A stretch of DNA of 62,986 nucleotides, filler included, from Reclinomonas americana ATCC 50394 (GCA_048213135.1; 7 parts of 4 records of this genome joined end to end with filler, not necessarily neighbours in it); one strand, 5' to 3'. Shown: positions 267-61,424, counted from the first letter of the whole stretch. Numbers and translations are program-made. Notes: generated from the letters alone by a model not told the origin.

Positions 267-2457
267 TAGGGAGAGACAACTTTGTATTTCTTTCCTGTCG
301 CTGGTGGTCTCTTTTTTGTCTTGTTGGTGGGTCGTATCGCCATTAGCATTGTCGGCGTTACTCCGTTCTTCGGTGCTNNNNNNNNNNNNNNNNNNNNNNN
401 NNNNNNNNNNNNNNNNNNNNNNNNNNNNNNNNNNNNNNNNNNNNNNNNNNNNNNNNNNNNNNNNNNNNNNNNNNNNNNNNNNNNNNNNNNNNNNNNNNNN
501 NNNNNNNNNNNNNNNNNNNNNNNNNNNNNNNNNNNNNNNNNNNNNNNNNNNNNNNNNNNNNNNNNNNNNNNNNNNNNNNNNNNNNNNNNNNNNNGACTGT
601 TTGGTCCTGGTCGATATCGCGTCGTTTTTCATCTGTCATATTTTGCTCCTACTCCTTACTTCTTTGCATTCTCGCCCTTCCCCTCTTCTTCCGCTTCTCC
701 TCCGCTGACTTTGGTGTGTGTGTGTGCCATCTCAGACTCTATTTCGCCACATATCTGTCACTACTCCTACTCCTTACTCATTTACATTCTCACCCTTCCC
801 CTCTTCTTTCCCTTCTCCTTCGCTGACTTTGGTGTGTGTGTGTGCCATCTCAGACTCTATTTCGCCACATATCTGTCACTACTCCTACTCCTTACTCCTT
901 TGCATCCTCGCCCTTCCCCTCTTCTTCCGCTTCTCCTTCGCTGACTATGGTGTGTATGACATCTCAGACTCTATTTCGCCACATATGTGTCACTGCTACT
1001 CTTTACTCATTTGCACTCTCACCTTTCCCTTTTCTTCCCCTTCTCCTTCGCTGACTTTGGTGTGTGGCATCTCGTATTCTCTTTCCCACATCCATCACTG
1101 TTCCTACTCCTTACTTCTTTGCATTTCTCGCCCTTCCCCTCTTCTTCCGCTTCTCCTCCGCTGACTTTGGTGTGTGTGTGTGTGCCATCTCAGACTCTAT
1201 TTCGCCTCATATCTGTCACTTCTCCTACTCCTTACTCATTTGCATTCTCACCCTTCCCCTTGTCTTCCTCTTCTCCTTCGCTGACTATGGTGTATGTATG
1301 ACATCTCAGACTCGATTTCGCCACAAATCTGTCACTATTCTTACTCTTTACTCATTTGCATTCTCACCTTACCCTTGTCTTCCCCTTCTCGTTCGCTGAC
1401 TTTGGTGTGTGGCATCTCGTATTCTCTTTCGCCACATCTCCATCACTGTTCCTACTCCTTACTCATTTGCATTCTCGCCCTTCCCCTTGTCTTCCCCTCT
1501 TCCTCCCCTCTCCTTCCCCTTCCCCTTGTCTTCCCCTCTCCTTCCCCGTCTCCTTCCAGGTGTGGTGGTGCTGGAGACTGTTTGGTTGTACGGCAACGTA
1601 TCGCTTTCGAAGTTCATGCTGACCAATACGGGCACTGGCATGGAGGCTGCCAGCGGCGCTGTATTCTTTGTGTCGATGTTGGTGGTGGCTGTCATGATTC
1701 GGGAGGCACAGCGTACCACGCACCTCGGTCGTCCACTCTTTCTTGCCTTTGGTGGTCGATTTGCCGTCGCATGTTGCGTGTGCGATCTGCTGTTGTTGCT
1801 GTTGCTGCTGGGCGGTGATTGCGGAACTCACCTTCCTCTCTCCCTGTGTGTGTGTGTGTGCACAGTGTACATTGTAGTGCTAGCTGTCTCCATTGGTGCC
1901 ATGCCGTTCGAGGACATTGTTGCGTATCGGTATGGCTCTCTCTCTTTCCTTCTTGATCGAGCTCACCACTGCGCTGTGCGCTCCACAGGTGACAGAAAAG
2001 ACGCGCGCCGATCCCACATGGTAGGCGCCTGTAACCTCCAGCTTGATCCCCCCTTTCACGCGTCTCACTTTGCGAGCGTGTGCGCGCGCACAGGCCCACT
2101 GGTCAGCCAGACTCCACCGTGTCTCTGTGGCAGATCGTATTCCACCTGTGCAACATTGTGCGGCTGGTGGCCGTGCTCATTGGCGCTTTCACGCTACGGA
2201 AGCACTTGCGAGCGTGGCTGGCGGCGACGTTTGAGAGAGCAATGGCTAGTGCTGCCGAGGCCACACCGGCACCGGGTGGACCATCTGCCAGTTCCGCACA
2301 GCGTGCTGGCCACTCGGTGCTTGGTGCCACGGGCGAAGCAGGCAATGGCCGTTTGTCTGTGTTGGGTCCGCGGACCACTGTGGAGATGCAAAAGTTGTCG
2401 CCTCACAAGGCAACCAAGCACACACTGCCAGCACTGCCACCAGCGGCGCCCCTGTAA
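1..2457 (+). CDS. Multi-pass membrane protein of unknown family, 5' partial, multi-exon
   Basis: Exons at 1-~145, 1560-1772, 1866-1918, 1989-2020 and 2093-2457 join through GT-AG introns into hydrophobic helices (GVVVLETVWLYGNV, AVFFVSMLVVAVMI, LYIVVLAVSIG, LWQIVFHLCNIVRLVAVLIG), ending at TAA 2455-2457. Linkage of the first exon across the N-gap is assumed. Confidence 0.55.
630..1500. repeat. Intronic minisatellite, ~110-120 bp unit, ~7.5 copies
   Basis: The GCTGACT(T/A)TGGTGT anchor recurs at 704, 822, 940, 1050, 1160, 1280 and 1395, with similar pyrimidine-rich sequence between anchors. Confidence 0.95.
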
Positions 2458-2616
2458 ATGACCCTCTAATTTTGCATCTCCCACGATCGCTTGCTTCTCA
2501 TCTCGTCTCCCCCCTCTGTTTTTACCATCGACGCAAATTCATTTTTTCTTGCTGTACAGGCACCACAGCTCCCTTCCTGCCTTTCCTCACAACAAACAGC
2601 ATACACAAACGGGCGA

Positions 2617-3768
2617 TCACGACTCGTCATCCGATTCGGATTCGTCGGAGGAGTCAAACATGCGCTTGTCGCGCTGCTCGGTGCGAGCGCCACTGATGGG
2701 TGGTGATGTTTGCTCTGCGCACATACACACACACACAGAGGTTCAAACGAGAAAAATACAACAGGGATTTCGAGCACGCGGAACACACACCAGCTCTGTG
2801 CTCGTCGCGCTTGGCGTCCTGCAACCACCGCACGAAGCGGAAGAAGCGATCGATAGGCTCCTTGCGCGCACGTGCCAACATGGACAAGTAGTCCTCGGAG
2901 ATCTGCGGCCGGAATCGCTCCACCAATCTGCGGCGCTGCTCGGCATCCATGCACTTGGCCTTGATGAGGCGAATCCTGTTATCGATGATGAGGTAACGTG
3001 AGTGCTCTGTTGCTCCGCGCGTCACCAGGCTGCCTGTACATACCACGACCGGCGAGTGAATTCCGTGTCGGCGCAGCACGAAAGCCGCCGATCCGTGTTG
3101 ATAATGGTGAAACCGTACGGTGTAGTTTGACCCTTGATCGTCGCCAATGGCACAATCACTCGTGTCTCACCATTCTGCACACACAGCGTGAGCAGATAGA
3201 TGTCCATCACCAAAGAACTCACGACAACGCCACGTACCACGAGTGCCATAGCACCGCGCTGCGTCTTCAACGTGGAGTCCGTGTAGTAAAACAAATCCAT
3301 GCCGCTGAGCACAAAGAACCGTCGCTTCCAGCTCTTCACCACCTTGCCGCGCTTCGTCAGCCATCCACGTTTGGTGGCCGACGAAAGCACCGCTGCGGTC
3401 GTGCGGGGTGAGTGCTCGAGGCGCAACACCGAGCAGGGGTCACTGCTACAACGCAACTCAATTGCAGGGAGAGACGCTGCATCTTCTCCAGCACCAGTCG
3501 ATCGAACAGGTCTGCACCAGTGCGTGTCATGCGGTCTTGAATGAACCACGCAAAAATCTGCGTGCTCAAAAAGTGCTCCATAAAGTCGCTGTGTTCCTCG
3601 TACTGCTCCTCCAAGAACCGTGTGTTGTCAAAGAGTTCCGCCGGCTCCGGGTCCTCCGGTGTCGGCCGAATGATGCACTCGTCGTAGCGTTTGAACATGC
3701 TCACAAAGATCGCAATGAATCGCTTCCTCAAGCGCTGGTGAGATCATCTCGGTGAGACTACTGCAACA

Positions 3769-3803
<35 letters not shown>

Positions 3804-6325
3804 ATTGCGTGGACGCAACATGAAGAGCTTTGGAGCTCGACGGCGAGTAGTCGGTGGCAGCAGCGGCAGCGGCGGCGGCCGCAGCAGCAGCCGAGGGCGA
3901 CGGCGCCACACCACCAGTGGGTGAGCCAGAGTAGGTGCGCAGTGGCAGCGCACTGGGAGCCGGTTCATCGCGGTCGCCATTGGAGCTTCCGGCACGATGA
4001 TAACTGGGAGTGGAGGACTGCGCGGAATCGGGCGACGGTGGTGTCGCTCTCGAGTGCGCAACCGCACTGCTGAGTGCCGAGGGCACATCTGGCGCTGACG
4101 ACGACTCGGCGGCCTCATTCGCAGGCGGGCTCCCGGGACTGCGAGAGCCTGTACGCACACCGACAAAAAGTGAGTAAGCACTTTGCGTACGGCACTGCGC
4201 TCTATCACAGGACAACGAACCACTGCCATTGGAGCGTGCTGGCGACACTTGCGAGTCACGCTGCAGCGCCTCGAGACGCGACGCCAGCAGCTCGGGTGGC
4301 GGGGCACCACCAGCACCGCTGCCGCTACCGATACTTCTCCGATGAATGGTGTGATTCAGGGGGAGGAGTCGAGGTGGCCGTCGATTGGTGGAATTGCGTC
4401 GGCGACCAGCGCGACGCTCGTCCGCATCCGACGCTCGCAGCTCGTCGTCGGAGAGCTCGTCATCCGAAATGTCGGTTGCAGTGGCAGCCGCCGAGGTAGT
4501 CGTCGGTGCCGGAGTGGCCAGAATCTGCGACACATGACACACACACAAATATGAGTGCAGTTCTTCAGCCATCTCTCTTCTTTGTTCCTCTCTCTCTCAC
4601 ACACACGCACCGCTGTCCGGTCGGTCGTTCGGTGAGCAGATGACAGGTTGGGATCGCGGGAGGATTCCACCAGGCTTGCCGTGTCCGTATCGGTGTGCTC
4701 GTCGTTGGAGACCGCATCTGTTCAACGAATGTCAGTATGCGCAGTCAAAAGGCAAATGCCACACGTCAAGCCGCACCAGAGGTCTCCGTCGCGACAGCAG
4801 TGGGCGGCGGGGTGTGCGGGTGGTCGTATGACGACATGTCGGAACCGGTATCGTGGCGCGATTCCTCAGGTCGGTCGGCAAACGGCGCAGATCGTCGTCG
4901 CCCGAGAGAACCCCGACGTAATGGTACACTACACGAGAGTGCGCCAGCCGTCAGTGCCATTAGTTCAACAAAGTAGCGTGACACAACCTACTCACCGACT
5001 GGGTTCACTTGCGTCGGATTCGACAGCGGTCATGCTCTGCAAGTGTCATCGACAGTGTGTGAGCAATGACTATTACCGCATAGTCACGGTATTGACTACG
5101 CACCCGCAACGAGGTGGCATTCAAGTTGAACTCGAGCACCGTTTCCTCCATAAAGGCGCCAGTCTCGTCATCGGAGTCGCTCTCATCCGTGCTGCTGTAG
5201 CCGTAGTCACCCTGGCAATCATCGGCGTCAGTATCGCCGACGCCTTTCGCACATGTCAAATGACACAGACCTCCTCTTCTTCCGACAACGTTCCCGAACC
5301 CGACGCTCGACCACCGCCTGCTGCCTTCACTCGAGCCGCTGATGCGCTCGGCGATTCGGCCACGGGACTCATGTTGTAGCGAGAGGATGCTCGTCCAGCA
5401 GCGACCTCCTGCTGCGCCTGCACAGGTCGGAAGAGGCGGTAGGCACCCTCCTCCAGCTGTGGGCATGTGAGGTCGGCAGGTGCAGCAGCTGGACTGCAGA
5501 ACTGGAAGCGCTCCAGTTCCTGTGCAGTCTCGCCCGTTAGACAACAGAGAAGAGAAAGACCACCGTACACAGCGTGAGAGCAGTCCACGTACCTTGCGAA
5601 TCTTCTTGACGTAGCGCGGCGGAAGAGTCTTGAGAATGTCGGGATGCTCCGACAGCAGCGCATTGGGCAAGAATACAGCATTCCGGTCCAAATCGACAAT
5701 GATGGCCTGGAGGTGAGGCGAGTGAGCGAGTGAGAGATAGAGAATCAAGGCACGGTGTGACGGACGCACGTGTTCGTGTGGAGTGTACGAGTTGAGGAAC
5801 TCGCGATGCGTGCCCATCAGATACGGGAAAGGAGCTTGCAAGTACTCCATCATGATCTTGGGCAACAGCGGAATGTACACATGCGGCCACTCAAACGGAT
5901 GCATGAGGCACAGCAACGACTCCGTGCACTGCATATCAACAGAGTCAATAAACAACACAATACATCGCTTGAATTNNNNNNNNNNNNNNNNNNNNNNNNN
6001 NNNNNNNNNNNNNNNNNNNNNNNNNNNNNNNNNNNNNNNNNNNNNNNNNNNNNNNNNNNNNNNNNNNNNNNNNNNNNNNNNNNNNNNNNNNNNNNNNNNN
6101 NNNNNNNNNNNNNNNNNNNNNNNNNNNNNNNNNNNNNNNNNNNNNNNNNNNNNNNNNNNNNNNNNNNNNNNNNNNNNNNNNNNNNNNNNNNNNNNNNNNN
6201 NNNNNNNNNNNNNNNNNNNNNNNNNNNNNNNNNNNNNNNNNNNNNNNNNNNNNNNNNNNNNNNNNNNNNNNNNNNNNNNNNNNNNNNNNNNNNNNNNNNN
6301 NNNNNNNNNNNNNNNNNNNNNNNNN

Positions 6326-6375
<50 letters not shown>

Positions 6376-8944: not shown

Positions 8945-11900
8945 ATGGACGAGAGCGCCAGTGCGCTCGCCGCACACGCGGTGATGCACTTCCGGCAGCG
9001 CGACTATGTGCACGCGTTGGAGGCACTGCGGCGACTTGCGCGCGCCACCAGCACCACACTCTCCTCATCCTCCACGACAACAACAACAACAACGAGCACG
9101 ACAACAACAGGAACAGTGGCTTCTGCTGCTGCTGCTGCTGCTGCGCCAGTGTCGTCGAATGGTGCCAGTGGAGGGCAGTCGGCGGCAACGACTGCGGCGG
9201 CGGCGGCGGCGGCTGCGGCTGCGCGCGAGAGTGATCGCGTGGCGGGGGTCGACACCAAGATCGTACACAATGCCGCTGGTCAGTGTCTCAGTGTGTGTCT
9301 GTCTATGAGAAACACACGCGCGCTCTCTCTCTCTTCTCTTCTCTATTCACTCACGCGCGTGATTGATTGGATTCGCACACCAGTGTGCGAGTTCTATCGC
9401 GACGGGTGTCAGGAGACGAGCAAGTTGCTGACCAAGTTGCAGAAGCTCGTGGGGCGCACCTACAAGCGAGGTGTGTGTGTGTGTGTGTACATGTTGTCGC
9501 TCTGGCTTTGCTGTTTCTCTTCTTGTTGTTCGTGTTGATTTGACCACGCAGAAACCGAGGGCATGTACGATGATCCGGAGCTGAGTGTGTTGCTGTACAA
9601 CCTGGCGTGTCTGTACATGCAGCTCAAGCAGTACGCGGAGGCGGCGGCGGTGCTGGAGGCGCTGTTTCGGGCGACGCCGGGGGCGCTGAATGAGAGCATT
9701 CTGTTGCGGGTCGGTGCGCTGCTGCTCGACATGCTGCTGACCATGGCGGAGAATGTGTCGTGGTTTCGTGTGGCGGCGCTCTGCCGTCGTGTCCAACCGC
9801 TGCTCGATGCGCTGGAGAGCAGTGTGGCGACGTTGGATGTGGAGGTGTGTACCGTCATCCATTTTTGTCGAGTCATTCTGTTCGTTCCTCGCTCACACGA
9901 TCGCTCAGTCCAACTCGAGATCGAGTGCCGCTGCTCGGAACGGTGTGTCGAGCTGCCCTGCTGCCCTGTCACCTCTCTCTTTGTGCTCTTTATGCTCACC
10001 ATCGTCGGGGCTCGCCAGCGACTGCTGTCCGTGCCGTGTCGCCCACGCTGTCGACCATCGCCTTCTCTGGCTCCGAACTGCGCTTCCTGCTGCACATGTG
10101 CCGCGCGCGGCTCCAGCTGCTGATGCGCGACGCGGCATCGGCGCGTGGTGAGCTGCAGCTGGCCAGCGGGCAACTCGGTGCACCATCGGATCCGTTGCAT
10201 GCGCTGCACCGACACGCCACCGTGCTGCTGTCGGCACATGTGGAGTTTGTCAGCGGCAATCCACGCAATGCGCTTGCCATTCTCGCGCCTAACGGCTCAC
10301 CGCTGCTGTCGCCGCCAAGCGCGCTGCCGCCCTCCGACGTCGCTGGTGAGCGTCTTTCAACATGCACCGCATGTCACAGCTGCTCATGCGTTGCGCTCCA
10401 CAACAGATGCCAATGCCTCGACGGCCTTGTCGGTCGTCTACCTCAATAATATTGGCTGCGTGCACTATGCGATGCGTGCTCCGCGCGCGGCTGCGCATTT
10501 CTTCCGCCAGGCACTCGAGCACTGGGATCGTCACGTGCATGGTACGCTGACAGTCGTTGGTGTCTGTCGGTCATCCTGCGTCTTCCTCTGCTCACAACAT
10601 GGGCACTCACACGCACAGCCGGTGCCAGTATGGCTGTGGTCTCGTCGTTTACCCGCGACCGCAAATGTGAAATCATGTACAATTATGGCCTGCAGCTCTT
10701 GCTAATCGGCAAGGCACATGAGGTTGGTTTTTTTGGATTACTTTCGGCCGTTCGTGGCGCAAGCGGATTGGTTCTGACTGGTGTGCCCGGCGCAGGCTTT
10801 TGAATGCTTGCAATTTTCTTCTCTGTTGCTCGGGAGGAGACCACGACTGTGGTTGAGATTAGCAGAATGCTGCATTGCGTTGCATGCAGCCAAGGTCAGT
10901 ACATTCTCCCCTGCATTTCTCAGTTCCCTCTCTCCGTGTGCTCACACGGGTGTTGCAGGCCGAGGGGCAACGATCATCCAGGTCCGGCAAACTGTGGACC
11001 ACGAGCTTGTCTGTGCGAGGTCACTTCGCACATTGCCTTCCACCGGCGTCTGTGGTGTCGGATGGCATTGTTGCGGACTCGGAGCCGCTGGTCGACGAGA
11101 GTGCACGCCCCGTGGTATTCAGGTGCGATCCTCTTTCACGCCACTCTTTTGTTGTTGTGGAGCTTCGTCACGAAACCCCTGATACGTCTGCAGAGCACGT
11201 GACGGCGCGGTGTTGAGCTTGCCGAAACCGTCCCTCGAATACGCCGCTTCGTGTTTGCAGACGTGCCTGGCACTGATCACGAGTCTCGAACAACAGCAGC
11301 AATACGTTTCGTAAGCAGCCGTTTTCTCGCTGTGGGTGGGTGTTGCTGCTGTTGCTGATTGTTCTGTTTGTTTAGGATCCGGAGACGGCGGCGAGTGTCG
11401 CCTCTGCCGCTGCGCTCGAGTCGCAAGAGCTTGCATTGGTGCAGACAGCATGTCTGCTGCGCTTGGTGTACATTGCCTTGTGCCAGCACGATCCGTCGGT
11501 GGCACTCGCACTGTGTCGTCGACTGGTGGCCTCACCGCCCCCGGATGTCGACTCGAGGTGCCGTGAGCACGCTGCATAACAACACCATTTCTGCCCGCTC
11601 ACTCTTCTCGCGCAGAATACTGGTGCATCTGTATGCCGCCGAAGCCCTTCTCATGCTTGAACAAGTCGATGCCGCACTGGGACTTTTGTTTCCACTCCCG
11701 GAAGTTGCGTGTGCCTCGAAACGTGTGCACACGCCGTGTGTCGTGCTCATTGGTTGTGGTTGCAGGCATTCGCTGCCGTGGTGCCGGCGGCCGCCGACGA
11801 GACATCACTCACCGTACGACTGGCCACGTACTGCAATCTGGCCGCCGCATTCACGGAAAAGGTGTGTCAGCAATGCAGCAGATTCCACTGCGTCGATGAT

Positions 11901-12319: not shown

Positions 12320-14207
12320 CTATTTGAATCCCATTAGTGAGGGGTCAAGCTGTGCGCAGCGGCGGCAGGAAACGCCAGTGAGCACGTTGAAAGCAGTACA
12401 GTGGCGAACGGCGCACATCATACACACCTGCTTGCCCTTCTTGCCCTTCTTCTTGTTGCCGCCCTTCTTGTCGGTGGCGGCCGCGCTAAATCCGCTCAGA
12501 TCGGAGCCTGCCGACGAGCGTCCCGACTCGAATGCTCGGTGGGTAACAAACTGCAATGAATCGTGCGTGAGAAGACGACGCCGATCAACCAACATTAAAA
12601 GCAAGAGACATTACCTCCTGTGCAAAGCTCTGCGCTCGTTGACTGTGTCCGAGGTACTGGCCGAGGTACTCGCGCACTTCGTTGTCGGTCGGCAGCGTGA
12701 GCAGGTAGCGTACCAGCGTCAGATCTGCACCGGTGGAACGATCAGAAAGCGTGCACGCGATGTGTGCAGAAGGGGTAATGCGACGATGCGCACCGTCAGA
12801 GCCATTAATGGCCTTCAGTTCCGTGCGGCACCATGCCTCGAATTGCGGAGACATGGACACAGCGGACTCTGCCTCCCCTCCACGGGCGGAAGCTGCTGGT
12901 CCGGCAGCCGCACCCTGCTTTCCACTCTTGCCCTTCTTGGTCTCCATTTGCGGCAGTGACGGGAAATCGTCGGGCTCACTGCAGGCGAGAGTGCGCGTCA
13001 GCTGCAGTCACTCAAAAACAAATTCACGCACTCCACTCATACCTGCGATTCGACGACTGCTTTGTCACCACCTCGGGGCTGGACGGCTCATCCTCCACGT
13101 CCCAGAACAGCTCCGAGTCCTCACTGTCATTCACATAAGCACAGCGCCACAAATGAGTGCACAAGCAACGGACGCAACGCTGGTGGCGGTGCGCCTCTGC
13201 CCTGAGCAGCAGGAGCACCGGCAGGGGCGTTCCAGCGGGCTTGTCGGCCAGTGGCGGCTTGCACCTTGACCTTGGGCGCCGACTGCGCCTGGTGCGGGGT
13301 GGGGAAGTTTTCCGATTCAGGTGCTGGCCGAGCGATGGCAGCCGGTGCACCATTGCCGCGACCGCGACCCATTGACGGCGCGGAAATCGACGCAGGTGCG
13401 GGGGAAGAGCTGCTGCTCCACACCGTGGAAACACCACCGCGAGCCGGCTGCACAATGTTGCGCTTCGCCTGCCTCTGCGCCTCCATGGCTCGTTCTTGCT
13501 CTTCGCGAATGGACGCGAGAGAAACGGCGGCCACCGGAGCAGTGGGCGCCTGCATGTGAGTGCCAGATCAGTACATCAGAGGGACAGCAATGCACAGAGT
13601 GGCGCCACACGAACCGCGTTCCAAGGGCCCTGACGCCGCGTCTGCATCAGTCGCTCCTGCTCCTCCGCCTGCAGGCGCAGCGCGCGTTGTCTCTCTGTCT
13701 CGAATTGCTCCACTTCGGCGTTCTGCAACTTCATGATCTCGCGGAAAGACAACTCAGCTGGCACACACAAGTACACAGTGAGTCATCGGTGGCGAACGGC
13801 AAAGGAACGAGACAAGCAAACGCATGCTCTGCGCACATTGCTTGGCACTGGCCGCTGGCGCAGCTGCGGGAGCCTTGGCGGCCGAGGCTGGCCGACGAGA
13901 CTTGTCCTGCCGCTGAGGCACTGGTGCGGGCTCAGGCTCCTCCTCCTCCAGCTCCTCCTCCGGTTCCTCCTCTTGGGGCAGCAGACGTGACTGCGTAGCC
14001 ATACCGACATGTCAGTACGAAACACCATCCAACAACAGGTTGCTTTCCTCGTCTCACCTTGGCAGCCGGCGGCAGCAAGTCGGCCAGCGAGTACACTGCC
14101 GGCGGTGCACGGCGCTCTGCCAGGGGAACGAGATCAATGCCAGTGGCCGACGGTGGCAACTTGACAGGTACCGGTGCCGGCTCCTCGACGGGTGCAGCGG
14201 CCTTCTG
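12320..14207 (-). CDS. GIGYF/Smy2-like protein, C-terminal part (5' end lost in gap)
   Basis: SFREIM and SLASIREEQ motifs; FEAWCRTEL...LTLVRYLLTL...EVREYLGQYLG...AQSFAQEF; KKKGKKGKQ-LDPSLMGF terminus, typical of GYF-protein C-termini. The GYF domain itself is not seen. Confidence 0.7.
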
Positions 14208-14263: not shown

Positions 14264-14363
14264 NNNNNNNNNNNNNNNNNNNNNNNNNNNNNNNNNNNNN
14301 NNNNNNNTTAATTAATTAANNNNNNNNNNNNNNNNNNNNNNNNNNNNNNNNNNNNNNNNNNNN
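14264..14363. other. Assembly gap with artificial all-frame stop linker (44 N + TTAATTAATTAA + 44 N); same construct at 29755-29854, 38201-38300, 50677-50776, 54304-54403 and 61765-61864
   Basis: Identical 12-mer centred in exactly 100-nt gaps six times. Confidence 0.97.
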
Positions 14364-15330: not shown

Positions 15331-16984
15331 CTACACCGCGTCGCTCAGCACCGTGAGCAACTCGTGCAGCACCGACGACACATTGCTGGTCAGCTGCAAT
15401 GACAGGAATGAGAAGGGAGGGGAGGAAAAAGGAAAGGAAGGAGGGAAGGGACGGGCGCACGCAACTCGCAAGCGCCCAGCTGTATGTACCGTGTAGCCCC
15501 CGAGCGACACACTCAGCAGGTGCAGGCCGGTGAGCTCCAAGTTGAAGGTGGAAAACATGAATTGCTCGAGATGCGACACGGCGCTGGTGGCGTCGTGTTG
15601 ACTGCAGCAGCGACGAGGCGCGTGAGCAACATGTGTTTGTGGGTGGGCAGGGATAGTGTCGAGTGTGCCGCACCACAACTGGAGCCACAGATCGGCGGGA
15701 AACTCGGCGGTCATCGTCTGCAGCGCACCGTGCTCCGTCGTGTCTTCGGTACCTACACCGAATACGAACTCGCACTGCTGGCTGCAAGTGTGCATGAGCA
15801 ACAAACAAGGGGAGGAGCGACTGGAAAGTAACCAAACGCAACGACACCATGGCAGCCACGTCACCATCGTCTCCACCTTCCGCTTCGTCGTCGCCACTCC
15901 CACGACCGTCGTCGGTCTCCCGGCGACGCACAACCGTCTTCCGCGCCCTTCCTTTCACCCTGCCTCGTTCTTTCGCCGCCACCGCCTCTCTCCCTCGCAT
16001 GACGGCGGCCACCGACTGACACACGGCCGAGGCCGCCACACGCAACACGTGCGGCGGCAGCAACGCTTCAAAGAACCGACAGTCGAGCAGCGCACACACG
16101 GTGCTCACGTACTTGGCCAGCGCACTGGCTGGCGTGGCACGCAACAGCGCCAGCCGACACAGGTGACGACCATGCGGTGTGGGCGCCGCGCGTCGTCGAC
16201 CTGCATGCCAGGTGAGAAACAACGGGGAGAAAGCGGAAGAAAAAAGCTGCAGTCAGCTGACCTGCCGCGGCCGCTCGCGGCGACATGCTGCTCGCTCGTC
16301 GCAGTGGCGACGGGCCACGCGCCGCCACCTCCACCGACATGGGCGCCGGCGCCTAACTCAAAACCACGTGAGCCAGCAGCAGGAATGCGAAAAAGAACAC
16401 TGCATACACCTCCGCCAGCATCGTCTCCTCCAGCTGCGAACTGGCAAACACCGATCGCGTCGTGAACTCCTGCTCCAGCGCCTCGCGTCCATCTACACTC
16501 CCCCCGATGAGCAACACAGATAAAGAGACAGACTGCACGACAACAAACCATCAAAACGACACCGCAGAAAGCACAGCTCAAACACCACACGCTCCTCTTC
16601 TCCAACACGCATCAGCACCACCTGCTCTGGATCACCACGCTCCTCATTGGCCTCTGCATACGCTCGTGTGAGCACACCAAACAAGCAAATGACCAACCCA
16701 TTGATGATCACGCACCATGCACCACCCATTGCACCGAATGCACCGTGGACCTCTACGCACACATATACACATGATCAGTGTCTCTCCGCCAGCGCACGAA
16801 GTACTGCATGCACCAGCGCAACTGCAGCATCGAGCGCACTCTGCAGCTTCCCGCTCACAGGCGACACATTCAGCACATGCGCCTCCAGTCGGCCCTCACG
16901 ATGCGGCAGTCCGTGTAGAGGCGACACGCGGAACAGGTGCCACTCGCCAGCAGCACCGGAAAGCAGCGCGTGCACATCAGTCAT
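15331..16984 (-). CDS. CENPL: Centromere protein L (CENP-L/Iml3/Fta1)-like
   Basis: N-terminal LL...WHLFRVSPLH; middle LALLR...VCALLDCRF; C-terminal LEQFMFSTFNLELTGLHLLSVSLGGYTVHTAGRLRL, paralleling CENP-L W-x-L-Y-x-x-T-P-L, F-D-C-x-F and F-x-I-x-L-x-x-x-x-L-x-x-V-S...DGKIKI. Recognised by eye. Confidence 0.7.
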
Positions 16985-20434: not shown

Positions 20435-22198
20435 TCAGAAGCGAGCCAGAGCACCACCGTCACAGCGAATGCCTTCGCCAGTGATAAACGCGGACATAGG
20501 GGAGGCGAGGAACGCCACGACCTTGGCCGTGTCCTCGGGCTCGCCGTGGCGCCCGAGAATGGTGCCCTGTCGACCGGCCTGTGCGAGTAAAAGAAAGTGA
20601 GGAGATGCGTGGAGCGGGCAAAACAAAGATATGCTTTACCTTTTTCACAAACTCGGCAATGCCCTGCGAGCCGGGAGTCAGCGTGATTCCAGTCTTGACG
20701 CAATTGACGCGAATGTTGTGCTTGCCGAGAGCCTGGGCAAATGACTGCAAAACAAAGGGGACCGTGCGATGAGAGAATAAGGGAAGGAGCAAGGGGCGAG
20801 AAGCCACATGGTCACCTCGGTGAGCGACAGCACCGCTGTGCATACTCGATGAGTGAACGGAGAAATGAGGGGGGAAGGGAGTGGAAGACAATGGAAACGC
20901 AACCCGCTTTCGAGGCGCTGTACGCAGTCATGTGGTTGTCTGCATGTTTCACTGAGGTGTGAGCAACCAGCAAGCGATATCAGCAACAGCCATGCGATCG
21001 CAACTGGCGCGCTCCGAGACCACCGACCCAATGTTGATGATGCTGCCGCCTTGGTTCTGGGAGGGACGGAGGGAGGGAGGGAGTGAGCGAATGTATGAGG
21101 AGTGCATTGTGACCTTGGCGTCGCCCTCACCTGCTCGATCATGGCCTCGGCGGCCACCTTGGACCAGTAACTCAGCCCCTTGACATTGACAGCCATCACA
21201 CGATCCCACACGTCGTCGGTGCACTCCAGCGGCTTGTTCAGCGGGTACATGCCGGCGTTGTTGACCAGCACGTCCAGGCGGCCGCAATCGCGCATCACGC
21301 TGCCGATGACGTGGTTGGCCTCGTCGAGGCGGCGTGCGTCGGCCACGTAGAAGCGGTGCTTGCTGGGATGGAGGGGAGGGAGAAGGGGAAGGGTGAGGAG
21401 ACGACGATGAGGGGGAGGGGGAGGGGGAAAGGAGAAGGAGGGGGGAAAGGAGAAGGAGAAGAAGAAGGGATAGAACAAGAACAACAAGGAGAGAGAGGAG
21501 GAGGAGGAGAAGAAGAAGAAGAAGAACAAGAACACGAACAAGGACAAGAAGAATAAAAAGAACGAGAAGGAGAAGGAGAAGAAGAAGAAGAAGAACAAAA
21601 AACAAGAACAAGAAAGAACACGAACAAGAAGAACAAGAAGGAGATGAAGGAGGAGGAGAAGAAGAAGAAGAAGGAGAAGGGAAGAGAGGGAGGAGGAGAA
21701 GGAGGAGGAGGAGGAGGAGGAGGAGGAGAAATAGAAGACAGAAGAAGGGGCAAGAGAGAACACAGTGCAGAAGGAGAAGAAGAAGAAGAAGAAGAAGAGG
21801 TTGGTAGACAAGGAGGGAGGGAGGTCAGTATTCTCCTGCATGCAACTCACCCCTCACTCGGAAGCGAGCGCAATGCATCCGTGCCGCAAGCTTGATTCAT
21901 GTCGACAATGACAACTGTGCAGCCGCATGCAGCCAGCTGCTTGGCACATGCCAGGCCGATGCCTGAGCGACAACATGAGTAAGACAGAACGAGAGTGTGT
22001 GTGTGAGAGAGAGAGAGACCTTGCGCGCCACCAGTGACCACGGCGACCTGTGTGCATGCATGCAGTGTGCATTTTTCCGACAGTGAGAAACGGACTGTGT
22101 TGTGCACTGTGGAGAGACATGCAAGCTACCTTGCCGTGGAGGCCGAGAAGCTCTTCGGGAGAGGGCGTGCTGGGGCTCGCTTTCGCGCTGGCGCTCAT
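20435..22198 (-). CDS. Classical short-chain dehydrogenase/reductase
   Basis: [29 protein letters not shown], catalytic YSASK, NIRVN, FITG...DGG after splicing. Confidence 0.95.
21365..21800. repeat. Purine-rich (GAA/GGA/CAA) low-complexity tract expanding an SDR intron to ~490 nt
   Basis: Directly visible. Confidence 0.9.
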
Positions 22199-27526: not shown

Positions 27527-27569
<43 letters not shown>

Positions 27570-29754: not shown

Positions 29755-29854
29755 NNNNNNNNNNNNNNNNNNNNNNNNNNNNNNNNNNNNNNNNNNNNTT
29801 AATTAATTAANNNNNNNNNNNNNNNNNNNNNNNNNNNNNNNNNNNNNNNNNNNN

Positions 29855-38200: not shown

Positions 38201-38300
38201 NNNNNNNNNNNNNNNNNNNNNNNNNNNNNNNNNNNNNNNNNNNNTTAATTAATTAANNNNNNNNNNNNNNNNNNNNNNNNNNNNNNNNNNNNNNNNNNNN

Positions 38301-43586: not shown

Positions 43587-46500
43587 TCAGTCGCCATCCC
43601 CGTCGTCCTCCACCGTGTGGATGCTCCAGGTGTCGGGTGGCGGCGCCGGTCCTGCACGTCGGTGCGGGTTGAAGGCCACCACCACACGAGGTGCGGCGAT
43701 TTGAATATCCGGCTGCTCGTCGCGCCGCAGCAAGCGCATGTTGGCCACGGCGGCGTCACGCACCGCTTTGGGATCGACCTCGCGCTGTGTACATACGCAT
43801 CGTGAGTCTACACCGCACGGGTGTGGGAGCAAAAATGAGTGGATGGCATGCCTTTTCTCGCGGAATCGGTGCACGAATGACGGCGCCGGCCGTTCGCTTG
43901 CGTGTGTGTGCCTCGGCTGTGGTGAGCGTGTCGTAATCCAGCGCCGCTGTCTGGCGACTCGGCTGATACGAGGTGCTCCTTGTGTCGCGCGACACACGAG
44001 GCAACGAGAAGCCGCCGCCCGACTCGGGCTTCAGGAATCGCAGAGCCGACTCGACGTCGTACTCGGGGGTGAAGCGCGGCACTGGCAGATCGTGATCACC
44101 AGGTCGTCGTCGCTGCCAGACAACAATGCAGGTGAGCCAAACAGGGAAGAACTGAACGGGAGAGAAGCAGCTTGCGCACCCCCTGATACTTGCTGAAATC
44201 GACATCCGGAACGCGTGGTCTCAACATGGCCGAGCTTGCGTTGAACTCGTCGTGCGCCATGCCAATCGGGCGAACCTTGTCATCCTCCGTGATGCGCCGG
44301 TTCGGTGTCAGGTCGCGTCCGTTGTACATGAGTGGTGCTGTGTTGAGAAAGTGAGCGCAGACAAGCAGCAGTGACTGACCGTCTCGCGATGCACACACCT
44401 TTGCTAAAGTCTGTGGCACGCGGCTGTGGCAGTGTTGCCGCCAGAGCTGCCTCGACATCCAACTCAACGGCGTCGTTCACCGGCGCCGGCGGGATCTTGG
44501 AGCGGCGGAGATCGGGGATATCACTGCGAGGCAGGTAGCCGCCTGTCGACAGCCAGCGAGAGGTGTGAGCATGATTGACGAAAAAGACGAGGACGCTGGC
44601 GCGCTCGCACCAATAACACGCGGAAACAAGACTTCACGAGGAATGTCGTAAATGGCGCTGTTGAGTCGATCGGGGAGCGGTCGTTCCTCTCGGCGTCGTC
44701 GGGCCACCGGTTCAGGGCTGACGATGCGGTGGCCTGGAATCGTGCGCTCCACCAGCGAGTATTCCACATCGTAGCGTCTGTGCGCAACAACGTCAGCAAC
44801 AAACAGCCACAGTTGCGCAGATAGCGATGCAGACAGACCCTGGATCGAGGCCAGGAGGCGGAGGCGGGGCTAGTCGTGGCGGAAGCTCCAGCGAGTCGTG
44901 CAAATGATCGGGGCGCATCACCACGAGACACTTGGCGCTCATGGTCGGGCGCAGATCGGATAGTGTGGGACCAGTTGCCGCATACAACGCCGCCTCCAGG
45001 TCCTCATTTTGCAGCCGCCGAAATCGTGCAACCTCGCCCTCTGTCAATGGACGATGATGAGAGCGAACACGTGGAGCACCACCAGACAGCGACGTCGACA
45101 AACCAACAGTCGGCGGATGCAACACTGGCGCAAAGTCGTGCTTGGGACGCACCGGATCCAACGAAGGATTGTAGGTGCCAGGATCGAGTACCTTTGGCTG
45201 ACGGCCACGTCGACGTCTGGGCTCCGTGACCGTGGCTGCAATTATTGGGGGTGAGCAGAACGAAGGGATGCTCCTCGCCAAAGCGTCCTCTCGCAACTGT
45301 CAAACACTGGTCCAGGCACATGCGGAAGCAGGGCCACGGACGGATCGTGCCACTGCGTGTCGGGAGAACGCCACAATCTTTGCGCCTCTTCCAGACCTGC
45401 AGCGAGCGATCAGTGCCTGGCACAGATGGAACAATCGGTCAGCTCACACGTACCGGTCACCACTGAGTCGTCCACAGTGAAGCGGCGACCCGTGGTACGA
45501 TCGAACATGATGGCGGCCACGTGCGCACGAACAGCATCGTACTGCGGGTCGTAGAGACCCGGTCCAAGGCGATCGGGCGGCGCACTGTCGTCGACGACAG
45601 GGAAACGCTCTCCGGTACCGAATGGCACGCCGCCACGAATGGTGCGCTGGTCGACCACCGTGTACGTTCCGGGGCCCTGCGATGACAGATTGAAGAGTGT
45701 GAGTTGCAGCAGCCACAGCAGGCGAATGTTGACGCGCTGCGCGCAACTGGCACACGTGGTGGCGCCGACCAGGAGCGTAGCTTTGATAGAAAGGAAAGAA
45801 TGTGTGAATGCGGTGCTGCATCGCAATGTGGCTCGGGGGAAGCACAAGTACCGGTGAGGGTGGCGGTGCAATGGTCGCCAGACGAGGCCTCGATTCGATG
45901 GCTCCATATGCACGATCGACATCCAACAGCTGTGGCACACCGGCGGTGTGAATGGATGGCAACAAGAATGCAGTGTTGCACGGCACGCTGCTCACCAATG
46001 GTTCCGGTTCTGCATCGTGCACTGGCCGACGAGGTGCGGCAACGACGGTGGGCGGTGCCATGACAGTAGTCGGGGCTCGCGGACGAACGGCATCGACATT
46101 CGGGTGCAGTTCAAGCGAGCGGCGCCGCACATGTTCACGACGCCGGCGAGTTGTCGGTGTGCGCCCTGCATACCGACGAAAATCGACAACACCAGAGGGT
46201 GGTGGTCGCATAGGTGATGGAGACCGTGAAGATGGCGGCGGCGATGGTGGTGGCGGAGTGGACGCGCGCTGGGGGAATGCGCAAGTGAGTGAATCACGAA
46301 TGCATGCCACTTGCTGCGCCACTGCGTTGCTCACCGATGCACTGGCTGGTCGCTGATACGCAAAGCGTACAGGTGCACTCGCAAAGTCCACAGCCGCACT
46401 GTGCTTTTGCACCACATCCCATCGTGGAGCGTACTGGCCAGGCCCCGGTGTTCCGTGGCGTGACGCCGAGGATGCGGAAGAGGGAGAAGACGCTGGGGAC

Positions 46501-47478: not shown

Positions 47479-48544
47479 ATGGCCGCAGTCACGTTGCGTT
47501 CGGGCCTGTCTCTCTCACACTATGTGTCCGTCTATGCTCATGCCACGTGCTCTTCGCAGCATTGAATACACTGTGCTCAAGCCGGAGGATGTGGATGCGG
47601 CAGCTGAGTTGTCGGGTCGGTGCTTTGGCGAGAGCGAGCCTGTGACCACTGCGTGCGGTGAGACTGCGTGGCGACGAGTGAGCAGCATGCTCACGTTCTC
47701 ATGAGGACTGTGAGCAGATGTTTCCGGCGACTACATGATTGGCTACTGGCGACCTTTTGTGGAGATTTGCTGTGCGAATGACCTGTCGGTGGGTGCGTGG
47801 GCGGTGGATGCCACCACTGGAGAGCGTACGCTGGCCGGCTGCGCGCTCAACATGCCGTACAATACCCCGGACCCGCAGGGTGAGATGCGTGTGGAAGCAA
47901 GAGAAAAGTTTCACACTTTTTTTCATCGTGCAGATGCATGCATGCACGTGCGCAGCGTTCACCGATTACTACGAGGCCGACCCGCAGCCAGCGGGTTCGT
48001 CTCTGTGTCCCATGTGCTTTGTTTTTTGCTTCGTCACGCCTGCATCTCGCTCATTCGTTGCATGCGTTCAGCCATTCACGCGTGCCTCGACTTGCTGGAT
48101 GAGAACTACCACAAGGTGCTCGACATTGATCCGGCCGAGGTGCTGCTGCTGCTGGTGTATGCCGTCGACAGTCGCTTCCGTGGACGAGTTGCGTACGGGT
48201 TGCCATTCGTTCCCATGGTCGCTTTGTGCTAACGAGTCGCCAGGGCATCGCCAACGAGCTGACGACGCGGACGTTCCAGATTGGGCGTGAGCGTGGATTC
48301 AAGCGCGCCGTGTCGCACACCTCATCTGGTGCGTGTGGCCGTCACCAAGCGATCTCGTGTGCGTGCGCTCTCATGTGTATCTGTCGTGCACGCAGCGTAC
48401 TCTCGCGCAGCCATTATGCGCGCCGGTGCCCGGGAGGTAACTGCTGTGGATTATGCTACATTCGAGTTCCAGGGTACCAAGCCATTTGCTGGACTGCCGG
48501 CTCGCGGGCACACCCACTTCTGCGTGGTTGAAGCAGCTCTCTAA
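47479..48544 (+). CDS. GNAT acetyltransferase resembling insect arylalkylamine/dopamine N-acetyltransferases
   Basis: F-x-x-x-EP near the N-terminus, motif A AVDSRFRGRGIANEL formed across an intron, TSSAYS, VDYATF; TAA at 48544. Confidence 0.8.
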
Positions 48545-50614: not shown

Positions 50615-50776
50615 CGTCAGAGTGTCCGTCGATTGATTGCGCAGTCTGTGCCTTCTTTAACATGCTGTGCAAGCTGNNNNNNNNNNNNNNNNNNNNNNNN
50701 NNNNNNNNNNNNNNNNNNNNTTAATTAATTAANNNNNNNNNNNNNNNNNNNNNNNNNNNNNNNNNNNNNNNNNNNN

Positions 50777-53700
50777 GCTGCAAGGTGGCACATCGCAACG
50801 CGACACACTGGAAATGTCCGTCGGCCAGCTGCAGGCGCAGCTGCGTGAGCTTCAAGGTGCTCTGACGGCGGCCGAGGCCGACAAGGCTCTCCGCATGGGC
50901 CAGCTGGCTGCGCGCAACGATGCGCTGGCGGCGGCCAAGCAGGAAATCAGTCGCCTGGAAGGTGACGTGCGTCAGCAGGTGGCGTTGGTGGCCGACGGTC
51001 AAAAGACGGCATCAGGCCTCAAGAGCGAGCTGGATCGGGAGCGTGCAGCGCGAGCGGCCGACAGCGCACGATTCGAACGGCAGCTGAAGGCGCTGGAGGA
51101 TGAGTTGGCGCAGCGCCGCCACCAGCTGGAGCAGGCGAACGACGAGCTGGAGCAGGTGCGTGCGGCCAAGGAGGCTGCCGATGCCGCGTTGCAGGAGGTG
51201 TTGGCCAAGGTGGACAAGAAGCGCGAAAAGGTGGCCGGCGCACGAGCGACCAGCTCTGCGCTCGAGGTGATGGGTCACAAGATTCGCGAGCAGCTGGCGC
51301 AACTGCAGGAGGAGCGTGCGGCGCTGGAGGCGGCGGTGGCCGACGCCAATCGCCGCTGCGAAGATGCCATTCGCGAGCGTAACCAGCGCGACGCCGCCAA
51401 TGCCAAGCAGGTGGCGCGTCTGCAAGAACAGCTGGCCGCGCAAACGAAGCGGGCCGACGGTTTGGAGATGAATCTGGACAAGGCCACTGGAGACCTGCAG
51501 AAGACGCAGGCGCAGCTGAAGCAGTCGGATACCGAGAAGCAGGCCGCCGAGAGCCGTGCATCGCAACTCGAAGAGCGACTGCGAGCGGCGCAGGAGGGTG
51601 CCAGTGCGGCGGGCAGTCGTGCTGCGGAACTCGAGGGCGAGTTGTCGCAGTGGCGTCGCACGGCGGAGGAACGCGGTGCACAGATCGCAGAACTCCAGCG
51701 CGGTGAGCACCGGTCGGAGCAGGCGGCTGCTCGTGCTGCCTCGCGAATTCAGCACCTGGAGGGGCGTGTGGGCGAGCTGGAGCGTGAACACGCCGACTCG
51801 CGCGCTGCGGCCAACGATGCGCGCAAGAGCGCCGATCAGGAGCGTCTGGAGAAGGAGGCATTGGCGGCGACCGTTGCCCAGCTCACCGAGCGCCTGCGCG
51901 ATGCGCAGTCGGCGCTGACCACGGCGCGGTTCGTCGATTGTCGCTGTTCTGCAGAAGAGTCTACCTGCCTGCCTGCTCACACCACCCCTACATACGCACA
52001 GTGCCGCCAACACCATGCAACAGCAGCAACTGACAGCAGCCGCGACTGCGGCGGCCGAGGCACAGCAAGAGGTGGTGCGTCTGGAGGGCTTGGCGCGCGC
52101 TCTCGAAGCGCAGTTGCGCGATGCCAAGGTTCAGCTGGGAGAAGGCGCAGCGCAGCTGGAGAGCGAGAGGAGTGCTCGTTGCGTCCAGCCGCCTTTTCCC
52201 TGTTTGACTCTTGCTGGCCATTCATGATGTTGTGCAGGAGCGGCGGAGGCCAAGGTGGCTGCTGCCAACAAGAAAACGCTGGAGGAGCAGCTGGCGGTGC
52301 AACGGCAGGCGGTGGCCGACTGCCAGAAGGAGCTGCATGATGAGCGTGGAGCGCGTGCGGCTGCCGAGTCGGCTCTCCGTGAGGCGAAGCAGGCGTTGCA
52401 GCGTGAGGAGGTGAGGTCGATCGAGCAGTGGTGCCATGATGGAGTTCGCACTAAAAATGCGTGCACACGCACGACACTGCGCAGGGCAAGGTGACATCGA
52501 GTGAGGCCGCTCTGACCGACGCCCTCAACAAGCTTCGCCAGCGGAACACACAGATTGAAGAACTGGCGGCGCACGAAGCAGCGCTCACCAAGCTGCTCGA
52601 CGATGTCGAGAAGGAGAGGGTCGAACGTGTGGCTGCGCACGAGCGTGAGTGCTCGACTCTGGCCGAGCAGCAGAAGCAGGTTTGATGCCATCAACACGCT
52701 CATTGACCCTCTTCCTCTCGTCAACTTACATGCATGTGTGGGGGAAAAAAACAGTTGGCCGCGCAGTTGGATGCCGCCGGCAGCCGAGCTGTGGCGCTGG
52801 AGCGCAAGGACGAGGAGAAGGGGCGTGTGATTGACGGCCTGAAGAGCGACTTGCAGGCCTCGCGTGCTGCCACTGCCGATCTGGAGACGCGCCTGGCGCA
52901 GCACCAGAAGCTGCTGCGGGATGCGGAGGCGGCGCGTGTTGCTCTCGCATCGCGCCTCACCGAGGTCGAATCGGAGATGCAGCAGTGGAAGACGACGGCG
53001 GAGGAGCGTGGCAAGCGACTCTCCGAGTTGCACCACGATCTCGAGCAGGTGCAGCAGGCAGAAGCGCGACAGCAGGCGCGCGCCGATCATCTGGAGAGTC
53101 GCCTGAAGGAGGCTGAGAGGGCGCTGGAGGAGGCGCGTGCGGCACTGGCTGCCGAGCGTGCACTCAGTGCCACTGCGGTGGTCGACAAGGACAGTGTGCA
53201 GGCCGAAAATGCGCAGCTGCGTGATCGGCTGCGAGTGGCGCAGGCGGCACTCACTTCGGCGCAGGCAGACGTCGCGCTGGCCAAGGAGGAGGCCAACACA
53301 CGAACGGCTGCACTGGCGCAGCGGCAAGCGGATGTGGCCCGGTTGGAGCAGAGCCTGCGCGACTCGGACGACCACGGCAAGGAATTGGCGCGTCAGCTGG
53401 CGGAGCTGCAGGCGGAACACGATCGCAGTGTGCGTACCAATGCTGCGGCCGTGGAGTCCCTGACGCAGGCGCAGCAGCAGGCGCAGCACGAGTTGCAGGA
53501 CCGCGCGCTGGCCATTGAGGATTTGAGCAATCAGCGAGCGACGCTGCAGGCTGAGGTCAACCGCCTGCGTGCCGAGGTGGAGAAGCGCAACAGCGAATTC
53601 GGCAACACCGACGCCGAGCTGCGTCGCAAGACAGCCGAATGCACGCGTCTGCAGGCCAAGAGTGCGTCGCTCGAGTCGCGAGTGGCGGAGGTGGAGACCA

Positions 53701-59700: not shown

Positions 59701-60115
59701 TCATCGTCGTCCCGAGTGTGATCACGTCTCTTTCTCCCCCTCGCTGACTCACTCGCAAATGTGTTGTTTGTGTGCAGAGCGCGCCAAGCGAGTGGGCGAG
59801 TTGGAGCGCCTCTTTGCCGAGGCACAGATGGTGATTACGAAGAATAACGCGGAGCTCGACCGAGCACGCAACGAGTTGAATACGTTGGAGAATGCTCGCG
59901 CCCAGCTGGCGCAGAGCGACGAATCGCGAGCCCTGCTGCAAAAGGACTTGCGAGATGCGCAGGCCAAGCTGGCTCTGATGGAAGAGGAGGTCGACTACTT
60001 GCGATCGGTGGTCGACGGTAACCCGCGTCTGCACGACCTGGTCTACATTGACGACAAACTGGCCGGTAGCCGCAGCAGTGGTAGTGACCGTAGCAAGCGT
60101 CCGTGGAAGCCGTAG
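50777..60115 (+). CDS. Very large coiled-coil protein (myosin-tail/centrosomal/rootlet-like), 5' partial, spanning two gaps
   Basis: Continuous A/E/L/Q/R heptad exons on both sides of the 54304-54403 and 55147-56096 gaps; ends RPWKP-TAG at 60115. Confidence 0.85.
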
Positions 60116-60177
60116 AAGAATCGCGAAGGCGTGCGTGTATGTGATAAAAAATGAAAACCATCTTTGTGCGAAACAGT

Positions 60178-61424
60178 TCAGTGTGCGTGCTGCAGCTTGT
60201 GGAAGAAGCGGTGGATGCGAGTGAGCGCTTCGTTGGCACGCGCATTCTGCTCCGGCACGTTCCAGTCGCCTGCGAGTCAGACACATTCAGTCGACACGAG
60301 AATTCTACATGTACTGTAGAGGTTGGTGATGCCACGCAACCACGAGCGCCGAGGAAGCCTGCGGGTGGAGGGGGAATGAACAACAACTACGGGTGAGTGC
60401 CGATGTGGAGCGCTGAGTGGAGGAGGCTGGTGCAAGACGAACCATGGAACATGTCTGGCCACGAGTCGTACTCACAGGCGGCTCCGAACGGCTTGCGATC
60501 GAGCGTCTCCTTGAAGGGCTCCAGCGGCGGGTCATCCTGCACTCATGCAGTGAGCATCTAGGGGGACTGAAGGAGACGAGAGCGCACAGGTGAGACCTTG
60601 GTGTTGATGAGGAGGAACGGGCAAGTGGCCTGCAGCACAGCCGGCAGTGGTGAGGACGTGCAAGCACCGCTGATGAGGGAGTACACACACGTGCGCGCAC
60701 CTTGTCCAACACCTCCGCAGAGAGGTTTGACGGATGCACACCGGCGACACCGTCGAGAGTGTCTGGGAGCGTGGCGAGGTGCATGCAAATCATCGCCCCC
60801 CAGCACAGACCGAGAGTGAACACTTTGCCGCCAGGCTGCACATTCTGCTTGAGGAACTCGGCCGCCGCTTGCCCATCGCGGCCCACCTGGTCATAGGTGG
60901 CGCGCTCGCCAATGAACTTCATGATGTCGTCCCTCGCCGGTGGCCACGGGTCTGTGGGGAACGGTGCTCCCTGCGCGGCGGAAAAAAAGAGTGGTGAGCG
61001 TGGAGAAGTCGAAACTGGTATGGGGCAACGAAACGTGGAACAGGTCCGGCATCACCACCAGTGCGTTGAGCGAGTCGGCGAGTCGGTCGACGACCTGGCA
61101 ACGAAAGATGATGATCGATGATTGATTGATTGATGCATGCATGCATGCATGCATGCACACACCTGGTACGTATTCGGATGCAGTCCAAAGATGTCGTAGA
61201 TGAAGAGAATGCCGCACGTGGCGGAGGCGCCTTGCGAGACGTACGCCTGCAGCTCACCAGCGATCGGCAGTGTCGAACCGCGAGGTTCGTACGCTTGACC
61301 AGTGACGGGAGCCACGTCGGTCGGGCAGCACGAGGCGGATCCTGTGCATGTGGTGCATTTAGTGGGGAGGAGAAGGGGAGACGATGCGGTGGCAGGAGGG
61401 AGTCACACCTGCAGCGCTCAGCAT
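60178..61424 (-). CDS. Dienelactone hydrolase family protein
   Basis: SCCP start, IYDIFG, VMPDLFHG, nucleophile GLCWG, HPS, MFHGFLGARGDW after splicing; TGA at 60178. Confidence 0.92.

Follow-up and report, generated by a model that had tools for sequence, protein, structure and literature searches.

We analysed a stretch of 62,986 bases from Reclinomonas americana ATCC 50394 (GCA_048213135.1), hereafter the window, with respect to the 5' splice sites (donors) of its introns. The window is eukaryotic nuclear DNA, GC-rich (~58%) and interrupted by 21 runs of N; it is gene-dense, with abundant short introns, and its Pfam domains, split over several reading frames, correspond to an MraW-type methyltransferase, an SDR, an LCAT-like lipase, RasGAP, DENN/PH and WD40 domains, a DDX56-type helicase and a dienelactone-hydrolase-like protein. 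A previous reading of the sequence alone (the sequence-only reading) had listed 39 introns whose donor carries the core of ordinary donors one base later, with G at +6 instead of +5.

A donor class with an extra T

All 39 listed donors have GT at +1/+2, G at +6 and no G at +5, and most of them (30/39) read GTTGCG followed by T, C or A, both as had been claimed. A GTT start is present in 36 of the 39, with the heptamers GTTGCGT (23 donors), GTTGCGC (5), GTTTCGT (4), GTTGCGA (2), GTTGAGT (1) and GTTGTGC (1); the three donors lacking it (11558, 24810 and, on the minus strand, 12614) are given with their sequences in Table 1. The 36 GTT donors share a core with G at +4 (89%), C at +5 (94%), G at +6 (100%) and T at +7 (78%). 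C at +5 is found in 34 of these 36, as against C at +4 in 20 of 47 ordinary donors (p=4e-7), in which A at +4 is nearly as common as C, and T at +7 is found in 28/36, as against T at +6 in 24/47. The displaced core is therefore tighter than the ordinary one, and the class is not merely any donor plus a T: the proposed displacement of the G holds at every site, but the motif is narrower than an ordinary donor lengthened by one base. From the evidence given here and below, we regard the existence of an extra-T donor class as well supported.

Individual donors were tested against profiles of homologous proteins (70 of 120 SDRs, 70 of 120 DDX56 proteins, and 6 LCAT-like proteins with 54-63% identity). 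All GT-AG alternatives that kept the frame without a stop were scored, up to 30 nt on either side (40 nt for LCAT); the exon layout of the DDX56 gene was obtained with tblastn. In all four cases (donors 21004, 20903, 40784 and 22820; scores in Table 1), the listed site ranked first among all the in-frame GT-AG alternatives, and all of these introns end in AG. For these four introns the profiles show, at the level of predicted proteins, cleavage at the GU of the extra-T motif. The ordinary donors of the same genes behaved alike (GTGAGGG, GTGACCA and GTGAGAG), and one ordinary intron, starting with GTAAAGC, scored 2 bits below an alternative. Two homology-supported donors of the SDR gene, at 20633-20639 (-) and 20809-20815 (-), also lack G at +5; they read GTAAAGC, with G at +6, and GTGACCA. 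The ordinary class is thus looser than the four hexamers with G at +5 by which the sequence-only reading had described it.

The heptamer GTTGCGT occurs 32 times in the window, as against 14.19±4.36 times in 100 dinucleotide-preserving shuffles, none of which reached 32, whereas the hexamer GTTGCG is weakly enriched (80 vs 63.5±7.8). On a strand map derived from coding potential only and trained on Pfam-supported exon pieces, 28 GTTGCGT copies were sense, 2 antisense and 2 undecided (p=8.7e-7), and five sets of one-mismatch neighbours were distributed symmetrically (sense:antisense 11:13, 16:22, 8:10, 6:4 and 8:7). A CTNAY..YAG signal ending 40-130 nt downstream accompanied 29 of 37 listed donors (two were dropped for N), as against 2257 of the 7282 GT sites of the window (31%) and 32 of 105 one-mismatch neighbours (30%).

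The strand counts also bear on the reliability of the assembly. The extra T could be a sequencing or assembly error, such as a homopolymer insertion, in GTGCGT; this is a draft assembly with many N runs, and an additional intronic T would leave the reading frames undisturbed. However, GTGCGT has a sense:antisense ratio of 54:32, against 28:2 for GTTGCGT, and the extra-T sites differ from ordinary donors both at exon position -1 and in the core. Furthermore, no frameshift interrupts the alignment of long exons to their homologues (215 aa for DDX56, ~167 aa for the LCAT-like protein), so insertion errors are not common, and we consider this explanation very unlikely. As a separate observation, the perfect donor hexamer GTGAGT showed no coding-strand bias (29 sense, 37 antisense), and its copies lie within GAGT/GTGA-type repeats.

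The abundance of the class was estimated with a de novo gene finder based on dynamic programming and a 3-periodic Markov coding score, accepting any GT donor and any AG acceptor, with no initial donor model; it was refined by expectation-maximisation (EM) on donor 5-mers together with an acceptor matrix, after which strands were resolved and the model retrained. Even when all donors were scored equally, GTTGCGT shared first place among the donor heptamers (3/117 introns). It was clearly the top heptamer after EM (18/148), with 13/114 after strand resolution and retraining. The final set of 114 introns comprised 62 with G at +5, 20 with T at +3 and G at +6 but not at +5 (T+3/G+6), and 32 with neither, most of which are probably errors. 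The T+3/G+6 introns make up 17.5% of this noisy set (20/114), as against 3.4% of all GT sites (p=3e-9), which is close to the share of roughly a fifth given previously; as a rough estimate from these predictions, the class seems to account for about one intron in six (about 15-20%). Coding potential in 60-nt windows around every GT, and self-training, were too weak to separate donors and were dropped. The homology tests, the strand bias and this share support the view that the listed donors are real intron starts forming a large class beside ordinary G+5 donors.

The gene finder recovered 21 of the 39 listed donors in one run and 14 of 39 in another. This incomplete recovery would fit boundaries that have been set wrongly, the true donors being nearby ordinary GT sites and GTTGCG an intronic or exonic element near the 5' splice site, such as a splicing-factor binding site. 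Nearby rivals of this kind exist at 28498 (in-phase GTGCGAT at -12), 26161 (GTGAGA at -11) and 38852 (in-phase GTGCGAT at +27). However, most of the sites have no in-phase G+5 donor within ±30 nt, donor 20903 has no other donor at all within that distance, and the GTT donor prevailed over every in-frame alternative wherever homology was applied. Misplaced boundaries are consequently a quite unlikely explanation for the class.

Intron type and pairing register

The 3' ends of the 20 T+3/G+6 introns of the gene-finder set were compared with those of its 62 G+5 introns. The acceptor was CAG in 19/20 and 56/62, respectively, and a CTNAY branch motif (CTCAC, CTGAC or CTCAT) was present in 15/20 and 50/62, at a median of 17 and 18 nt from the acceptor; median intron length was 68 and 74.5 nt. 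The lengths, branch points and YAG acceptors of the extra-T introns are thus as normal as the sequence-only reading had described them, and both kinds of donor occur within the same genes. With respect to the features of major (U2-type) introns, the GT start was found in 39/39, together with AG ends and the branch motif, and G at +5, which is usual but not obligatory, in 0/39.

U12-type introns, like the extra-T introns, form a second class beside the main one. Their hallmark is a TATCCTT-type donor combined with a TCCTTAAC-like branch site. We rejected this assignment, as a TATCCTT-type donor was found at 0/39 sites and the 3' signals are the same as those of the main class. The identical heptamer in 23 introns might also suggest a mobile family (introner-like elements) carrying its own donor. 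Nevertheless, an all-versus-all blastn comparison of the 123 nt following the heptamer at the 39 sites gave 11 matches, all of them between overlapping neighbour windows or in low-complexity sequence of at most 30 nt. Since the intron bodies share no sequence, the class does not appear to be a mobile family, and this origin is scarcely plausible.

We somewhat favour the view that these are ordinary major (U2-type) GT-AG introns in which the GCGU core is read one base further in, through a displaced U1 register. The 5' splice site would be GU-U-GCGU rather than GU-GCGU, with an additional U separating the cleaved GU from the core. The 5' end of U1 would pair one base displaced, most likely in a shifted register in which intron G+1 replaces exon G-1; alternatively, U1 might pair with one bulged U. 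The ACAGAGA box of U6 would then have to accommodate the extra U, by pairing one base further in or by pairing less. Displaced pairing may cost stability, such that only the strongest core (GCGU) would be tolerated. Within single genes the class stands side by side with ordinary G+5 donors, and it seems to make up ~15-20% of introns.

The standard U1 5' end is AUAC-psi-psi-ACCUG, as printed by Tan et al. 2016 (PMC4856993). When GUUGCGU is paired with this sequence, the G:C4 and U:A3 pairs are missing from the ordinary register, and a count of pairs indicates that the shifted and bulged registers both restore them. The exon flank differs between the classes: G at -1 precedes 4 of the 36 GTT donors and 32 of the 47 ordinary donors (p=1.4e-7), and A at -1 precedes 17/36 GTT donors. 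This low G and high A, with A-1 opposite U10, leans towards the shifted rather than the bulged register.

Several points weigh against this displaced register or against the class on which it is built. The unlisted GTTGCG occurrences are also seldom preceded by G (-1 G in 4/50), so the depletion is not donor-specific and supports the shifted register weakly. Among ordinary donors there is no preference for A at -2 (23-25%), and the exon pattern is therefore not simply displaced by one base. All the pairing statements assume standard small nuclear RNAs (snRNAs), which may differ from the host's own U1, U5 and U6. The homology tests cover 4/39 donors, with a margin of 5 bits at 22820. Besides its partial recovery of the listed donors, the gene finder is noisy (32/114 donors in neither class), and EM on k-mers can be self-reinforcing, so its results constitute support rather than proof. 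Finally, the GTTGCGT motif alone is insufficient, since the copy at 28432 falls within the RasGAP-profile match and seems not to be used.

Real donors read by a dedicated snRNA variant, namely a second U1 (perhaps also a U6) complementary to GUUGCGU and acting beside the standard one, with a co-evolution like that in Entamoeba and Mastigamoeba, are the main rival to this view, a possible though doubtful explanation. A motif sharper than that of the ordinary class, as documented above for positions +4 to +7, is expected of a match to its own guide, and co-evolved U1 5' ends do exist (Entamoeba AACAAAC and Mastigamoeba ACGUAC; Roy & Bowser 2022 bioRxiv). However, the known cases involve a whole intron set shifted together with a single U1, and two coexisting classes are not reported in the portions of the sources covered; moreover, according to the same portions, U1 has remained standard in Thecamonas and the Mamiellales, although their donors carry C at +4. 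Searches of the window with Rfam at gathering thresholds and with ARAGORN detected no snRNA or tRNA gene. The more specific proposal of an additional, lineage-specific variety of the major spliceosome, in which a U1 (perhaps U6) paralogue complementary to GUUGCGU would serve about one intron in six beside the standard snRNAs, seems to us rather improbable.

Individual donors and neighbouring features

The donors are listed individually in Table 1. From an automated junction scan, only the list of in-phase alternative donors was used, as the acceptors it chose were too distant (308 instead of 188 nt for donor 40784).

Table 1. Extra-T introns and claimed donors of the window, with the unlisted copies of GTTGCGT
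Feature	Position	Strand	First bases	Support or remark
SDR gene intron, 65 nt	20940..21004	-	GTTGCGA	210.1 bits vs 179.3 for sole alternative donor; 3 variants within ±30 nt
Second SDR intron, 68 nt	20836..20903	-	GTTGCGT	No in-frame alternative donor within ±30 nt; 210.1 vs 201.4 bits with other acceptor; 2 variants
DDX56/DBP9-type DEAD-box helicase, first intron, 188 nt	40784..40971	+	GTTGAGT	330.2 vs 311.0 bits for sole alternative, GTGCTCA at -21
LCAT/lysophospholipase-3-like intron, 61 nt	22760..22820	-	GTTGTGC	Best of 18 variants, 332.2 bits; runner-up GTGCAGC at +3, 327.2
RasGAP-domain intron of large gene, 94 nt	28498..28591	+	GTTGCGC	Pfam RasGAP match (profile 1-67) reaches nt 28498
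Membrane-protein gene intron, 71 nt	17685..17755	+	GTTGCGT	Frame change in three-frame view; recovered by gene finder
Membrane-protein gene, candidate intron, 66 nt	18488..18553	+	GTTGCGT	In frame, stop-free; CTCAC and CACAG; not needed for frame; recovered by gene finder
Membrane-protein gene intron, 65 nt	18941..19005	+	GTTGCGT	Required for frame change; sole in-phase GT giving usable intron length
Membrane-protein gene, last visible intron, donor	19517..19523	+	GTTGCGT	Sequence, three-frame view; donor only
Claimed donor	1773..1779	+	GTTGCGT	Sequence only
Claimed donor	1919..1925	+	GTTGCGT	Recovered by gene finder
Claimed donor	11306..11312	+	GTTTCGT	Read-through meets stop after 2 codons
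Claimed donor	11558..11564	+	GTGCCGT	G+6, not T+3; sequence
Claimed donor	11704..11710	+	GTTGCGT	Sequence
Claimed donor	24810..24816	+	GTCGCGT	G+6, C at +3; sequence
Claimed donor	25669..25675	+	GTTGCGT	74-nt intron in gene finder
Claimed donor	25765..25771	+	GTTGCGC	69-nt intron in gene finder
Claimed donor	26058..26064	+	GTTGCGT	Sequence
Claimed donor	26161..26167	+	GTTGCGT	Rival GTGAGA 11 nt upstream; gene finder chose 26150
Claimed donor	26750..26756	+	GTTGCGT	56-nt intron in gene finder
Claimed donor	27035..27041	+	GTTGCGT	68-nt intron in gene finder
Claimed donor	27147..27153	+	GTTGCGC	69-nt intron in gene finder
Claimed donor	27478..27484	+	GTTGCGT	Sequence
Claimed donor	29287..29293	+	GTTTCGT	59-nt intron in gene finder
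Claimed donor	38852..38858	+	GTTGCGT	In-phase GTGCGAT at +27
Claimed donor	39697..39703	+	GTTGCGC	Sequence
Claimed donor	39920..39926	+	GTTTCGT	Sequence
Claimed donor	47493..47499	+	GTTGCGT	Sequence
Claimed donor	48188..48194	+	GTTGCGT	Sequence
Claimed donor	52178..52184	+	GTTGCGT	Sequence
Claimed donor between dDENN and PH domains	3451..3457	-	GTTGCGT	
Claimed donor upstream of dDENN domain	3813..3819	-	GTTGCGT	
Claimed donor	12608..12614	-	GTAATGT	G+6, not T+3
Claimed donor	13172..13178	-	GTTGCGT	Sequence
Claimed donor	15459..15465	-	GTTGCGT	Sequence
Claimed donor	45291..45297	-	GTTGCGA	Sequence
Claimed donor	45741..45747	-	GTTGCGC	Sequence
Claimed donor, dienelactone-hydrolase-like gene	60334..60340	-	GTTGCGT	
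Claimed donor, dienelactone-hydrolase-like gene	61028..61034	-	GTTTCGT	Exon frames fit on both sides
Unlisted GTTGCGT	15836-15842, 16040-16046, 16139-16145	-	GTTGCGT	Inside 452-codon open frame; in-frame introns or plain coding sequence
Unlisted GTTGCGT	28432-28438	+	GTTGCGT	Inside RasGAP-matched exon, apparently unused
Unlisted GTTGCGT	33609-33615, 35376-35382, 57052-57058	+	GTTGCGT	
Unlisted GTTGCGT	49884-49890, 59866-59872	-	GTTGCGT	

The membrane-protein gene contains four such donors interspersed with ordinary ones. Its exon at 19006-19515 (+) shows 71% identity over 165 residues to P0283, a protein encoded on one 2.3-kb Logan contig and the sole close relative found. At the start of the exon that follows intron 18941..19005, the N-terminus of P0283 resembles the translation of an intron's last bases. 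The relative thus shares the intron position, its predicted protein beginning within an intron at that exon boundary. A metagenome scan with an alignment of this exon and P0283 gave 235 pattern matches and no relative. The best protein matches of the DDX56 gene, from oomycetes, Coemansia and a jakobid, were 49% identical, with none higher, and the LCAT-like matches (54-63% identity) included one from the vampyrellid Leptophrys vorax.

The RasGAP match extends beyond both in-phase rival donors, GTGCGAT at 28486 and GTTGCGT at 28432; donor 28498 is nevertheless ambiguous, because the gene finder chose 28486. A PDB search with the RasGAP exon returned chance matches only (E>0.5). The first intron of the LCAT-like gene (23090-23180, -) probably starts with GTTTGTT, in phase 2, which would be a further T-rich donor without G at +5, but its start is not fixed, since the flanking protein region is variable among homologues. 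Upstream of the SDR exon, ~400 bases at 21440-21850 (-) are nearly pure C/T (CTT/CCT repeats) and probably correspond to a long intron or a 5' region.

The nine GTTGCGT sites outside the listed 39 lie mostly on the coding strand. Short in-frame, stop-free introns were noted at 18488-18553 and, approximately, at 18666-18741 and 41550-41640; their retention would insert merely ~22-25 residues, which makes hand annotation ambiguous and protein isoforms by retention possible. The most frequent 7-mers of the window belong to (GT)n and (GA)n microsatellites, which are often intronic (e.g. 27530-27568). A pattern of 44 N, 12 real bases and 44 N recurs at 14264-14363, 29755-29854, 38201-38300, 50677-50776, 54304-54403 and 61765-61864; all six look as if produced by masking or scaffolding and not by a biological process.

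Relation to known donor systems

The G recognised by U1 and U6 is regarded as lying at an almost constant distance from the cleaved GU. In humans, shifted and bulged registers have both been established experimentally and are rare, and all the curated non-canonical registers together account for 2.1% of 5' splice sites (Tan et al. 2016, PMC4856993). The human shifted-register sites (Roca & Krainer 2009, via Tan et al. 2016, PMC4856993), in which all the U1 pairs are moved by one position, resemble the donors described here in having a cleaved GU, no G at +5, and G and U one base later. However, they are rare single cases with an A-rich core, whereas the motif in the window is GC-rich, occurs in about a sixth of the introns and has a register deduced from its sequence. 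GUUGCGU also fits the bulge +2/+3 register (Roca et al. 2012, via Tan et al. 2016, PMC4856993), in which one of two U residues after G is bulged and the rest pairs as usual. Human sites of this type number 68 of 201,541 (54 after curation; Table 3 of Tan et al. 2016, PMC4856993), which agrees with the previous statement that shifted donors are rare in mammals; this is ~0.03%, as against ~17% here, and the low frequency of exon -1 G (4/36) is not predicted by that register.

Entamoeba and Mastigamoeba (Roy & Bowser 2022 bioRxiv) likewise have lineage-specific donor consensus sequences departing from GUAAGU, and Entamoeba donors, as here, have T-rich positions after GU. In those organisms, however, a single modified consensus, matching a single modified U1, has taken the place of the ordinary one, whereas two classes are found here within the same genes. 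The GYGCGY donors of the Mamiellales and the +4C donors of Thecamonas resemble the ordinary class of the window (GTGCGT, GTGAGT), with C at +4 tolerated by a standard U1; unlike here, the text covered mentions no extra-T class in these organisms. A literature search, with most subscription journals and supplements outside its reach, found no published GTTGCG-type donor class.

If the displaced register proposed here is correct, it would promote displaced-register donors from rare exceptions to a main class of splice site. Such an organism would provide a natural experiment on how the cleavage site is set where the GU lies one base away from the position indicated by U1/U6 pairing, and gene finders trained on a single donor matrix would mis-annotate a sixth of its introns.

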